From a virus: a stretch of DNA of 42,933 nucleotides. A program made the position numbers and the translations under genes. Under the pieces are notes generated by a model. That model searched no databases, was not told where the DNA came from, and saw only the letters and a program-made list of their open reading frames with translations. The stretch is from positions 1-42,933 of IMG/VR virus record IMGVR_UViG_3300045988_062945. One strand, 5' to 3'. Of the stretch, positions 9,103 to 42,933 are shown one piece after another (within the stretch, counting starts at the first letter, position 1; every line of letters begins with the position of its first letter).

Positions 9103-9430
9103 ATACCACAACCGCAAAACCACCCTCCCCACCGGCGAGACCTTCGACAGCCAACGTGAAGCCCTCCGGTACACACATCTTGCCTTCCTCGCAAAAACCG
9201 GATACATAACCGACCTGAAGCGTCAGGTAAAATTCACCCTGATCCCGAAGCAGCGCCTGAAATCCGGCAAAGCCCTCCGCGAATGCGCATACGTCGCAGA
9301 CTTCACCTACACCGACACCCGCACCGGAGAGCATATCGTCGAGGACGTAAAGGGACACCGCACACCGGAATATATCATCAAGAAAAAGCTCATGCTCCAC
9401 CTATATGGAATCGAGGTGACGGAGACATGA
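9095..9430 (+). CDS. DUF1064-type PD-(D/E)XK nuclease (resolvase-like)
   Basis: GTG 9095 follows caaggagg. It contains FDSQREALRY...YVADFTYTD...VEDVKG. Confidence 0.65.
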   Translation: MSKYHNRKTTLPTGETFDSQREALRYTHLAFLAKTGYITDLKRQVKFTLIPKQRLKSGKALRECAYVADFTYTDTRTGEHIVEDVKGHRTPEYIIKKKLMLHLYGIEVTET

Positions 9431-10092
9431 AAGTGCTTGTCGCTTGTGAAGAATCGCAGAGAGTTTGCACCGCCTTCCGCGAGAAAGGACACGAGGCGTA
9501 CTCCTGCGATATACAGGAGTGTTCCGGTGGACATCCGGAGTGGCACATAAGAGGCAACGCTCTGGAAGCTCTGAAAGGCGGGACTATCCTCACCGACGAC
9601 TGGGTAATGCACGATATAGGCAAGTGGGATATGCTGATAGCACACCCGCCGTGTACGTATCTTAGCAACGCTGGTGCCTGCCGCCTTTTCAAGAAAATCG
9701 ACGGGGTATCATGGATAAATGCCGATCGCTTTTACAAAGGGCTTGAAGCAAAGGAGTTTTTTCTGAAATTTTTCCATGCCGATATCCCCCGTATAGCGGT
9801 CGAAAATCCAATTCCTTCAAAGGTTTTCTGCCTTCCGCAGTACACACAGATCATACAGCCATACTTCTTCGGTGATCCTTACGAAAAGAAAACTTGTTTG
9901 TGGCTGAAAGGTATTCCGCCGCTGGAAGAAACTGAACGCATCCCCCCCCCGATTCCATTGGATCTCTGCCGGGAGTTTCAAAGCGGACGGGACAAGAAGA
10001 GATTCTGTCGGGGTGACACACAATCAAAAGCTGCGGAGCAAAACATTTCCCGCCGTTGCAAGGGCAATGGCAGAACAGTGGGGCTGATATGA
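9427..10092 (+). CDS. C5-cytosine-methyltransferase-like gene whose 3' end is out of frame at a C9 tract
   Basis: It contains MKVLVACEESQRVCTAFREKGHEAYSCDI, a PPC motif (LIAHPPCTYLSNAG) and an ENP motif (IAVENP). The family-typical C-terminus ...KLRSKTFPAVARAMAEQWG* is readable only in the +1 frame (open 9908-10087). Confidence 0.7.
   Translation: MKVLVACEESQRVCTAFREKGHEAYSCDIQECSGGHPEWHIRGNALEALKGGTILTDDWVMHDIGKWDMLIAHPPCTYLSNAGACRLFKKIDGVSWINADRFYKGLEAKEFFLKFFHADIPRIAVENPIPSKVFCLPQYTQIIQPYFFGDPYEKKTCLWLKGIPPLEETERIPPPIPLDLCREFQSGRDKKRFCRGDTQSKAAEQNISRRCKGNGRTVGLI
9942..9950. repeat. Homopolymer C9 at the frame break of the methylase-like gene
   Basis: The sequence reads gcatCCCCCCCCCgattcc. 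Confidence 0.95.
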
Positions 10093-37881: not shown

Positions 37882-37918
37882 ATGCGTATTTGCAATATCA
37901 AAGAAAGTGTAGGATAAT
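37877..37918 (+). promoter_or_regulatory. Late promoter copy 3: CTTAAATGCGTATT motif, TTGCAA, 17 nt, GATAAT (overlaps the fibre gene stop codon)
   Basis: Identical 14-nt core, with the hexamer at +36. Confidence 0.55.
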
Positions 37919-37980
37919 GAAGTCATGAGACAAGGAAAAATCCACAATCAAGAACTCAAAATCAATTAAGGAGAACCATT

Positions 37981-38172
37981 ATGGCTGTTAAGTTAATGAA
38001 TCAGAACATCGATCAGTATGCGAAGGCGACGACCTTTGACTACCTTTGCGACACGGATGACGACTTTGCGTCGCTTCCGGAGACTACTGTCGGGTCAACG
38101 GCAGTAAGCATAGCGTCCGGGACGGTGAAGGTCGTGAACACCGAGGGACAGTGGGTTACATTCGGAGGTTAA
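37981..38172 (+). CDS. Small hypothetical protein (63 aa)
   Basis: SD aaggag. It reads MAVKLMNQNIDQYAKATTFDYLCDTDDDFASLPETTVGSTAVSIASGTVKVVNTEGQWVTFGG. Confidence 0.6.
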   Translation: MAVKLMNQNIDQYAKATTFDYLCDTDDDFASLPETTVGSTAVSIASGTVKVVNTEGQWVTFGG

Positions 38173-38173
38173 A

Positions 38174-38505
38174 ATGGATATTACGAAGTATGCGATTTTG
38201 AAGAAATTGGCTGGGGGGGGGGGGGTAATGGTAGCAGTGATGTAATGATTGTTACTTTTACCTTTGATGCGGAAACAGAAAGTGTTACCGCTGATAAAAC
38301 TGTTAATGAAGTATATAGTGCCATGCAAACTAAAGCGATTATTGGCGTTTTGACTGCCGGCGACACTATCATTCCTCTTGGACCGTGTTGCGCCCATTGG
38401 GCAGACATGATGGGCTATCCATCGTTTATGCCGAACGTTGCTAACGGTAAGCTGTTCTATTTAATTTCAAGTTTAAAAGGAAGTTGGGTATTTAATGCCA
38501 GTTAA
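38174..38505 (+). CDS. Gene interrupted by a G13 tract: SD-led 23-codon ORF (38174-38245) plus SD-less 86-codon ORF (38245-38505)
   Basis: GGAGG at 38164-38168, then ATG 38174 (MDITKYAILKKLAGGGG). The downstream frame is open back through the G tract. G14 or G11 would give one 110- or 109-aa ORF. Confidence 0.6.
38213..38225. repeat. Homopolymer G13
   Basis: The sequence reads ggctGGGGGGGGGGGGGtaatgg. Confidence 0.95.
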
Positions 38506-38555
38506 TGAATTGAAACAATAATGCGACAAAATCGCAGAAAGGAACATAATGAAAG

Positions 38556-39002
38556 GTGACACTTAAAGAAATCCTGTGGGGGAGCGGCGGTGCTATAATC
38601 ATCCTGCTTACCCTCATACAGATAACGCCTATCAGGGTCAACCCTTGGACGGCGATAATAAAAGCCATAGGGAGGGCGTTTAATACAGACGTGATTAAAG
38701 ACCTTAAAGAAATAAAAACGTCGCTTCTTGAGACGCAGGAGCGGCTTGAAGGGCATATACTTGCCGACGACATGAGAGCGGCGGACGAGCATCGGAGGCA
38801 GATACTCCGCTTCAACGGGGAGGTCTTGCGCAAGCTCCGGCATACCAAAGAAGAATTTGACGACGTGCTTGTCGAGATAGACGAGTATGAGAGGTATTGC
38901 AAGGCTCATCCCGACTACAAGAACAACCGGGCGGTGCTTGCGATAGAGAACCTGCGCCGGGTATACAAGATACTTCTTGAAACAAACGATTTTTTAACCT
39001 GA
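38556..39002 (+). CDS. Membrane-anchored coiled-coil protein upstream of the lysis genes
   Basis: GTG start. It has an N-terminal TM segment (GSGGAIIILLTLIQITPI) and a helical remainder. Confidence 0.55.
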   Translation: MTLKEILWGSGGAIIILLTLIQITPIRVNPWTAIIKAIGRAFNTDVIKDLKEIKTSLLETQERLEGHILADDMRAADEHRRQILRFNGEVLRKLRHTKEEFDDVLVEIDEYERYCKAHPDYKNNRAVLAIENLRRVYKILLETNDFLT

Positions 39003-40398: not shown

Positions 40399-40435
40399 GC
40401 GGCAAGAGCGATTTTGCCGCCATTTATTTTTTTCA
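40399..40435 (+). terminator. Rho-independent terminator of the late/lysis operon
   Basis: GCGGCAA-8 nt-TTGCCGC followed by catttattttttt. Confidence 0.75.
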
Positions 40436-40465
40436 AAAATTTTTTTATTTTTTTTCAAAAACCCC

Positions 40466-41879: not shown

Positions 41880-42933
41880 TCACGTGGCAGATTTCGTGGC
41901 AGATTTCTCCGAAAACTGCTTAAAAGCATCGGAATAGTATGCCTCTAACCTCTCAAAAAACATATCTGTTTTATCCCTCATGATGTGTCCGTATACCCGG
42001 TTGACCATGTCCTCTGTCTCGTGTCCGAGCATATCTGCGATGTACTTTACAGGTATTCCGAGCATGATCATGACCGATGCGGTATAATGTCTCAGCTCGT
42101 GAAAGGTGTAGTGTGTTTCCGGGCATACTTCCTCAAGCACTTTCTGATACCGCTTGTATATCTGGTGCGTCTTAAGCGTCGTGATAAATATGTCATCTGG
42201 GTTGTAAAGCCGCTTCATTTCCGTTCTGAGATACGGCACCATTTTTATTATCCGGAATCCTGAGTAAGACTTCGGGGCTTTTTCAACAAATTTGTTTTCT
42301 ATGTCACGGACGATGGCAGTATCAACCTTTATCGTGCCGGCTTTGAAATCAACGTTTTTCCATTTCAGCCCGACGATCTCGCTCGATCTCATCCCTGCAA
42401 GCGCCGCCAGAAGCACCGGAAGCTCGATTTCGGTATCATGCACCGCTTGTATCAGCTTCATAACCTCTTCTTCGGTCGGAATTATAATATCCGGCTTTTC
42501 TTTTTGTGGTAATACCGTCCTCAACGTAAAATCCGGTCGGAACATCTTGAGAGCTGTTGAAAGCATACCGTGCATATTACGAACCGTCTTCGGCGCGTGA
42601 TTTTCTGCCTCAGCATTTATAGCTATCTGTACATCTTCTTGTGTCAGATCGTAAATGTTAATGTCGTGGAGAGGCTTGAGCGCATTTTCCCGCGCCTTCG
42701 TGTACACCCTGTATGTGAGCGGCGACAAAACGTTCTTTTTGGATTCCACACATCGCTCCATTGCCTCATATACAGTGATTTTACCCTGCCTGTTTCCTTT
42801 CCTGCTTGCCTCAAACTGCGCCGCTTCAAGCTGCACGGCTTTTTTGTTTTTCCCGGTAAAGCTCCGGTAATGCGCCTTTCCGTCCTCGTCCTTATAGTCA
42901 AGGACTTTTATCCGGTACGACCCCGACGGTAGC
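41880..42933 (-). CDS. int: Tyrosine recombinase / phage integrase (5' end runs off the window; the true start is the ATG at 136 after circularisation; 356 aa in total)
   Basis: The frame is open to the window end. Catalytic-type motifs are AGMRSSE (Arg), HELRHY (H-x-x-R), LGHE and VYGHI (Tyr), with an N-terminal arm-binding-like LPSGSYR segment. The gene lies next to attP. Confidence 0.9.
   Translation of the reverse strand, partial: LPSGSYRIKVLDYKDEDGKAHYRSFTGKNKKAVQLEAAQFEASRKGNRQGKITVYEAMERCVESKKNVLSPLTYRVYTKARENALKPLHDINIYDLTQEDVQIAINAEAENHAPKTVRNMHGMLSTALKMFRPDFTLRTVLPQKEKPDIIIPTEEEVMKLIQAVHDTEIELPVLLAALAGMRSSEIVGLKWKNVDFKAGTIKVDTAIVRDIENKFVEKAPKSYSGFRIIKMVPYLRTEMKRLYNPDDIFITTLKTHQIYKRYQKVLEEVCPETHYTFHELRHYTASVMIMLGIPVKYIADMLGHETEDMVNRVYGHIMRDKTDMFFERLEAYYSDAFKQFSEKSATKSAT
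41884..41906. repeat. Two tandem GTGGCAGATTT units (right arm-type site candidates) inside the last codons of int
   Basis: Units at 41884-41894 and 41896-41906. They encode the ...KSATKSAT C-terminus on the minus strand. Confidence 0.7.
42815..42933. repeat. Second copy of the 119-bp terminal direct repeat (equals 1-119)
   Basis: Same string as 1-119, starting at a42815 within tcaaACTGCG. Confidence 0.95.

Follow-up and report, generated by a model that had tools for sequence, protein, structure and literature searches.

A poly-G tract splits a modular accessory gene of a gut siphovirus, probably through a recent slipped-strand frameshift

The viral DNA analysed here (IMG/VR record IMGVR_UViG_3300045988_062945; the whole stretch of 42,933 nucleotides is called the window below) carries, past its tail genes, a gene that is split into two ORFs by a run of 13 G residues. 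We consider, with moderate confidence, that this arrangement arose by a recent slipped-strand frameshift of +2 nt in the glycine-linker of an optional, fast-evolving modular accessory gene of about 110 aa, which would now be OFF. The closest cultured relative of the phage terminase is that of Blautia phage Montmirail (66.5%), which fits a temperate gut siphovirus of the Lachnospiraceae type.

Results

Structure of the split gene

The features of the locus are listed in Table 1. The upstream stop TAA 38170-38172 is followed by a single base and then by ATG 38174, the start of the split gene. Translation from this start gives MDITKYAILKKLAGGGGVMVAVM up to the TAA that ends the frame. The product comprises a conserved N-terminal module, MDITKYAILKKLA, Gly residues and an out-of-frame tail, VMVAVM. 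The 86-codon ORF lies in the +2 (= -1) frame, which is open backwards to TAA 38170 and offers no other start codon, and its ATG has no Shine-Dalgarno sequence in front. All coordinates were re-read from the sequence and agree with those of the initial annotation, which had proposed that G13 splits one gene and that a change of tract length would restore it. In fact G14 yields one ORF of 110 aa and G11 one of 109 aa, both of which align end to end with the homologues. The fused product, whether from an ON variant or from recoding, would contain the junction peptide (K)LAGGGGGNGSSDVMIVTF...

The G13 tract is far outside chance expectation. In dinucleotide-preserving shuffles of the window, runs of at least G11 have an expectation of 0.01 per shuffle, and the G and C runs elsewhere in the window reach at most 6 nt, save one G8 and one C9. 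G13 has the make-up of a phase-variable homopolymer, that is, a run of at least 7-8 nt in frame at which a change of +/-1 nt toggles the ORF. The G8 (25680-25687) is intergenic, 6 nt past the stop of ORF 25216-25674, and breaks no frame.

Table 1. Coordinates of the split gene, its surroundings and the methyltransferase-like gene in the window
Feature	Position	Strand	Remarks
DNA methyltransferase-like gene	9427..10092	+	read as 221 aa; +1 frameshift at C9 (9942-9950)
Sigma-70-like promoter match TTGCAA-17-GATAAT	37889..37918	+	consensus match only; ahead of the 63-aa gene
63-aa gene	37981..38172	+	highly conserved, dN/dS 0.30; constant partner of the modular gene
Shine-Dalgarno GGAGG	38164..38168	+	5 nt 5' of ATG 38174; from sequence
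5' fragment of the split gene	38174..38245	+	23 codons plus TAA (38243-38245)
G13 homopolymer	38213..38225	+	within glycine-linker codons; in-frame state exceeded by 2 nt
Predicted RNA hairpin	38230..38262	+	starts 5 nt past the last in-phase G_GGG_GGG
Stop/start overlap TAATG of the 23-codon and 86-codon ORFs	38243..38247	+	from sequence; V-M encoded there in intact relatives
3' fragment of the split gene	38245..38505	+	86 codons, without lesion; alpha/beta domain

Homologues, gene order and predicted fold

A search of 5.8 billion proteins with the fused protein retrieved 11 clusters at 54-97% identity. All 11 are single ORFs of 107-115 aa with a query coverage of 95-100%, and they share one layout, in which a Gly linker joins an N-terminal helix (MDITK[YF]AILKKLA) to an alpha/beta domain of about 86 aa. 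This comparison bears out the view of one gene broken by a homopolymer. The initial annotation had also considered that homologues might consist of two genes with an independent start for the downstream one; this does not hold, because every homologue cluster is a single ORF.

In an AlphaFold2 model (pLDDT 80.8) made for the closest intact homologue, residues 3-12 form a helix, residues 14-19 a Gly linker of low confidence, and residues 23-109 an alpha/beta domain that is modelled with confidence. With the linker at 14-19, the frameshift therefore falls exactly within it, and ATG 38245 is predicted to encode the first residue of the folded domain.

The fused protein had no match in Pfam, PHROGs, NCBIfam or PDB sequences, and Foldseek of the model against the PDB gave nothing significant. 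Against BFVD, the best Foldseek matches were unannotated 530-684-aa proteins of gut siphoviruses (E = 7e-4). A profile search of 1.84 billion representatives returned 99 clusters, mostly of 100-160-aa proteins, and its large hits were uninformative when compared with Pfam. At the nucleotide level, blastn of the locus found no match among INPHARED phages, and a 23 kb megablast gave two short 75% matches only; protein-pattern scans of genome and viral contig collections yielded no relatives. When genome contigs were scanned with a 23-nt DNA pattern taken from the N-terminal module, the only matches were in seven MAG contigs of Pseudomonadota (L024-L030; Rhodoferax, Comamonadaceae and others), which are probably unrelated to the phage locus, a conserved gene containing the pattern by chance.

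The gene order around the locus is conserved: tail proteins (493 aa; 633/641-aa DUF859) are followed by the 63-aa gene, the split gene and a 148-aa protein (phrog_37604), then sometimes by DUF6275, and then by a Hol44 holin and an Amidase_2 endolysin. The split gene is accordingly the second gene past the 641-aa DUF859 tail protein, in agreement with the initial annotation, which had placed it two genes past its receptor-binding candidate. The 63-aa gene itself had no family match in Pfam, PHROGs, NCBIfam or PDB sequences. Just 3' of the endolysin gene, T7, T7 and T8 runs with CAAAAA-type spacers occupy positions 40427-40455. Past the endolysin region, some relatives contain a giant ORF of 3,925-3,990 aa as the next gene (L004, from 6272 onward; L005, from 6239 onward), one of them with a match to ART-PolyVal (PF18760); the window has no such gene.

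Modular exchange and selection

Other phages carry an identical set of 63-aa gene, N-terminal module and Gly linker with the C-terminal part swapped. Behind the linker stands either the 86-aa domain, an LRR_5 (BspA-like) protein (198-309 aa) or a protein of 306 aa. The mosaic junction is located in the Gly-linker DNA, at window position 38223, and similarity resumes at 38552. The conserved block comprises a promoter-like site, the 63-aa gene, the N-terminal module and the Gly linker; its edges as drawn by blastn are 37950-38223, and the putative sigma-70-like site lies just 5' of them. Contigs with an alternative cassette (L014, L016, L018-L023, L043, L044, L047, L050 and L051) have an extra 58-aa gene there. 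The whole cassette, that is, the 63-aa gene plus the split gene, is absent from five relatives (L042, L045, L046, L048 and L049), where the tail genes run directly into the 148-aa gene. Since the cassette is optional in the phage group, a frameshift in it would be tolerated.

The dN/dS ratio was about 1.9 for the domain (12 homologues, 76 codons, window 38245-38472), as opposed to 0.30 for the 63-aa gene and 0.21 for the 148-aa gene that flank it. About 15 codons of the 86-codon ORF are hypervariable (9, 12, 38, 43, 51-56, 64, 66, 69 and 71). These values suggest that the domain is under diversifying selection. A diversity-generating retroelement was considered as the source of the hypervariable codons and rejected for lack of a template repeat and of a reverse transcriptase: the window holds no second copy of 38174-38560, and no reverse transcriptase occurred among the 18 window ORFs put through Pfam, a minority of the ORFs in the window.

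A role in host interaction, or as a tail accessory protein, is plausible for this gene because of its position in the tail module, its N-terminal module shared among swappable C-termini that include LRR_5, and the dN/dS of about 1.9. A constant N-terminal module joined by a Gly linker to an exchangeable C-terminal domain is also the architecture of modular phage receptor-binding and accessory proteins; unlike these, the product is very small (about 110 aa) and has no detectable homology to a known receptor-binding or tail protein. The label of tail accessory protein that the gene had been given thus stands as far as position and architecture suggest it, and finds no counterpart in homology.

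The poly-G tract in the strain and its relatives

Exact-sequence look-ups retrieved three further assemblies of what is essentially this phage, with 99.8-100% identity to the window. They derive from three different samples and two assemblers: L010 (ERZ959585/SRR2249437; MEGAHIT k127), L011 (ERZ2663650; SPAdes, 2.4x coverage) and L013 (ERZ27229778; k119, a 42,928-bp contig). All three read GCT-GGC-G11-AATGG, with 14 nt between GCT and AATGG. The corresponding G13+T of the window has the same length, and the stop after 23 codons is present in all four. In L001 and L002, the nearest relatives with an intact frame (97% aa identity), the linker is GGCGGCGGGGGT, 12 nt long; with 14 nt, the strain is therefore at +2.

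The linker was then compared between the window and 28 relatives, 29 distinct contigs that all carry the N-terminal module. The linker of 24 contigs is encoded by mixed GGN codons, for example GGC GGG GGA GGT GGA GGC GGA, with G runs of at most 8 nt, all in frame; an in-frame G8 is found in L020. The remaining five have a G run of at least 9 nt and are all frameshifted. Four of them represent the window strain, and the fifth, L041, belongs to a different lineage. Its tract, GGC-G9-T-GGAAAC, can be derived from the L003-type linker by an A>G change and the gain of a single G (+1); this frameshift is independent and lies on a different linker background, on a short scaffold. Two independent slippage events are thus counted in about 20 lineages, one of them on the short scaffold L041. 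The long homopolymer is not conserved among relatives, being absent from all 24 in-frame contigs with the N-terminal module. A collection of 15 billion proteins contained neither an in-frame allele with the strain's C-terminal sequence nor an ON allele with a long tract. The tract does not appear to be a conserved design, and this pattern fits a recent frameshift in a successful strain.

The following course of events may be proposed. In the intact protein, an N-terminal helix of 13 residues would be joined by a disordered (Gly)3-8 linker to an alpha/beta domain of about 86 aa under diversifying selection. Synonymous N-to-G changes would merge the codons of a (GGN)n linker into a G run, a single such change sufficing for a long one, and the run would slip once a length of about 8 is reached. 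In this strain, GGC GGC GGG GGT (12 nt, in frame) would have become the 14-nt tract that is read as G13+T in the window and as GGC+G11 in its siblings, truncating the gene after 23 codons and leaving the 86-codon domain in the -1 frame. By its consensus DNA, the gene would then be OFF in all assemblies of the strain, a loss presumably tolerated with an optional cassette. A G11-13 run is intrinsically hypermutable, and in-frame revertants (G14 or G11), slipped transcripts and -1 shifted ribosomes would therefore be expected at low frequency. The tract would thus be a young accident of linker coding and not a conserved contingency locus.

A second homopolymer in a methyltransferase-like gene

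The C9 of the window is located in a DNA methyltransferase-like gene, which the initial annotation had described as broken. This gene is truly frameshifted: the ORF from ATG 9427 passes C9 into the wrong frame, and residues 1-219 of a C8 version are colinear with 154 phage records, for example the 'DNA methyltransferase' of Clostridium phage phiCs5676-1 (52%). A sibling contig has the identical C9 (100% identity over 3,336 bp). Among proteins of at least 90% identity, three frame states coexist, namely 219 aa with IPPRFHW (inferred C8), 221 aa with IPPPIPLDL (C9) and 195 aa with IPPDSIGSL (C7), the C7, C8 and C9 of these relatives being deduced from protein frames and not from DNA. The OFF alleles occur on several N-terminal backgrounds, and for each such background an ON allele is as close as, or closer than, the nearest OFF allele of the same state. 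Alleles with an interrupted tract were also seen, IPHRFHW being ON and IPPTIPL being OFF. A search for the poly-C flanks in IMG/VR gave no match, and the C run is absent from distant methyltransferase relatives. The allele pattern is the population signature of recurrent +/-1 slippage, which makes the methyltransferase C9 a stronger candidate for phase variation than G13. It also modestly raises the prior for SSR switching in this phage group.

Could the poly-G tract be a switch?

The G13 tract could alternatively be a functional contingency locus, a reversible poly-G ON/OFF switch of a host-interaction accessory protein in mixed populations, with the window caught in the OFF phase; we regard this as possible, though unlikely. 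Such a switch would agree with a long homopolymer that is one step (+1) from ON, with diversifying selection on a swappable cassette of host-interaction type, and with two independent frameshifts in the same linker (+2 in the window strain, +1 in L041). It would also agree with near-identical genomes that differ mainly at the tract edges, and with the polyphyletic C7/C8/C9 alleles at the methyltransferase poly-C of the same genome. The tract is, however, not conserved, as all 24 in-frame contigs have mixed Gly codons, and the four assemblies of the strain show no length variation, all having 14 nt and all being OFF. Moreover, an ON allele with a long run was seen nowhere, and a shift of +2 lies two steps away from the ancestral frame, which the drift of a broken gene would explain equally well. 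The earlier suggestion of a deliberate contingency locus therefore stands for the structure of the tract and fails for both its conservation and its ON/OFF length polymorphism.

A precedent is provided by Campylobacter (Fletchervirus) phages, in which hypermutable polyG tracts in receptor-binding genes have been described (Sorensen et al. 2021, Cell Rep 35:109214, as cited in PMC10579305; PMC10877375). These polyG-controlled receptor-binding genes are the closest known system. As there, an intragenic poly-G of more than 9 nt lies in a gene adjoining tail-fibre genes, a +/-1 nt change toggles the ORF, and a function in host interaction is plausible. In the Campylobacter phages, the polyG tracts are reportedly conserved across related phages, and mixtures of lengths are said to have been measured in phage populations. 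In contrast, G13 is confined to one strain (plus the independent event in L041), its relatives have mixed Gly codons, neither a mixture of lengths nor an ON long tract is found here, and the host is of a Gram-positive gut anaerobe lineage.

Similar mechanisms are known from bacterial SSR contingency loci and phase-variable methyltransferases (phasevarions) of Campylobacter, Neisseria and Helicobacter (PMC3401435, PMC5084427, PMC4209511). The likeness lies in slipped-strand mispairing at G/C homopolymers of at least 8 nt, and in a methyltransferase that is ON (C8) or OFF (C7, C9) on several backgrounds. Unlike the bacterial loci, those described here are phage-borne and not chromosomal, and G13 is without their typical conservation. 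A more general proposal, that this group of temperate gut siphoviruses of Clostridia type uses SSR contingency loci in which poly-C toggles the methyltransferase and poly-G toggles a fast-evolving host-interaction accessory protein in mixed phage or lysogen populations, appears doubtful.

Possible expression of the split gene

Homopolymer frameshifts may be rescued by infidelity of the polymerase or the ribosome, through transcriptional slippage or programmed -1 frameshifting, the latter for example in the phage tail chaperone G/GT. The split gene could be expressed in such a way, by -1 frameshifting on G_GGG_GGG or by polymerase slippage (+1 G), both of which would give the full-length protein, or by reinitiation at TAATG, which would produce the 86-aa part alone; we hold this to be improbable. 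The downstream ORF at 38245 is exactly in the -1 frame, the 86-codon ORF is intact, and two in-phase G_GGG_GGG heptamers (38215-38221 and 38218-38224) have the slippery form of programmed -1 sites. A predicted hairpin starts 5 nt past the last heptamer (z = -2.4 to -2.6). An identical hairpin is, however, predicted in the in-frame relative L001; being present in in-frame relatives and older than the frameshift, it probably did not evolve as a stimulator.

Unlike at programmed -1 sites, the frameshift is not conserved in homologues, which are all single ORFs without a two-frame architecture. L041 would need the opposite shift (+1), and Rfam gave no match. RNA polymerase should slip on a G11-13 run. 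The TAATG overlap, in which the stop TAA shares bases with ATG 38245, is a possible termination-reinitiation site that would yield the 86-aa domain without the N-terminal module, although this ATG lacks a Shine-Dalgarno sequence. We regard leaky rescue of expression as possible, but not as the evolved mechanism.

Sequencing or assembly errors

The initial annotation had raised systematic homopolymer errors of this assembly as one explanation for the two broken genes. The two ends of the window form an exact 119-nt direct repeat (1-119 and 42815-42933), so that it represents a genome of about 42,814 bp assembled as a circle. Relative to the window, L013 is circularly permuted, and together with the terminal repeat this identifies both as circular de Bruijn short-read contigs. 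The sibling contig of 42,928 bp (L013/L033), set beside the genome of about 42,814 bp, differs by 5 nt from the 42,933 nt of the window. Long-read homopolymer error as the cause is ruled out by the 119-nt terminal repeat and by the recurrence of the tract in contigs from both MEGAHIT and SPAdes.

Over 6,192 bp, the window and L013 have just two mismatches, both at tract-edge bases (38215, G vs C; 38226, T vs G), and there are 0 other differences in about 9.5 kb between genomes of the window strain. These mismatches reflect either faster local mutation or unreliable base calls, and the frame is the same either way. Classic systematic errors of Illumina sequencing include T>G after GG as well as phasing problems at GGC (PMC3295828).

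An artefact, with a true tract in frame and systematic miscalls in G-rich sequence, is very improbable: the GGC/GGT contexts are Illumina trouble spots, two tract-edge bases differ between window and siblings, L011 has a coverage of just 2.4x and L041 is a short scaffold, but four assemblies that differ in sample and assembler agree on the 14-nt length, systematic errors of the known kind are substitutions and not +2 indels, C9 is identical in an independent contig, and the window forms a circular contig whose size is consistent. As the same +2 frameshift recurs in three independent assemblies, the frameshift at G13 appears to be real and not an error peculiar to one assembly. Likewise, with C9 reproduced and C7/C8/C9 states present among relatives, the two broken genes do not come from systematic errors of assembly.

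Discussion

Taken together, these features favour a recent slippage of +2 nt in the glycine-linker, with loss of the gene tolerated by the strain. Three observations have to be set against a mere slippage accident. First, the 86 codons carry no second lesion; a strain too young for decay would explain this, yet a switch or a recoding site would look alike equally. Second, differences restricted to the tract edges over 6.2 kb favour either hypermutability or unreliable base calls. Third, the C7/C8/C9 states of the methyltransferase suggest that SSR switching is active in the phage group. Adaptive phase variation at G13 would be the less likely reading.

If the frameshift is a tolerated loss, it is a routine matter of annotation: the two ORFs are to be recorded as one frameshifted gene, and the frameshift is not to be 'corrected'. 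The by-products of the analysis may then be more useful than the tract itself, namely a small modular family, a domain with dN/dS above 1, and a methyltransferase with recurrent C7/C8/C9 alleles. If the switch is true, homopolymer phase variation of phage host-interaction genes would extend beyond Campylobacter phages, and under the SSR-contingency reading, phages of Gram-positive gut anaerobes would, to our knowledge, gain their first example of SSR phase variation. Its new setting would be the temperate phages of abundant human-gut Firmicutes, where it would bear on host range and on the coexistence of phage and bacterium.
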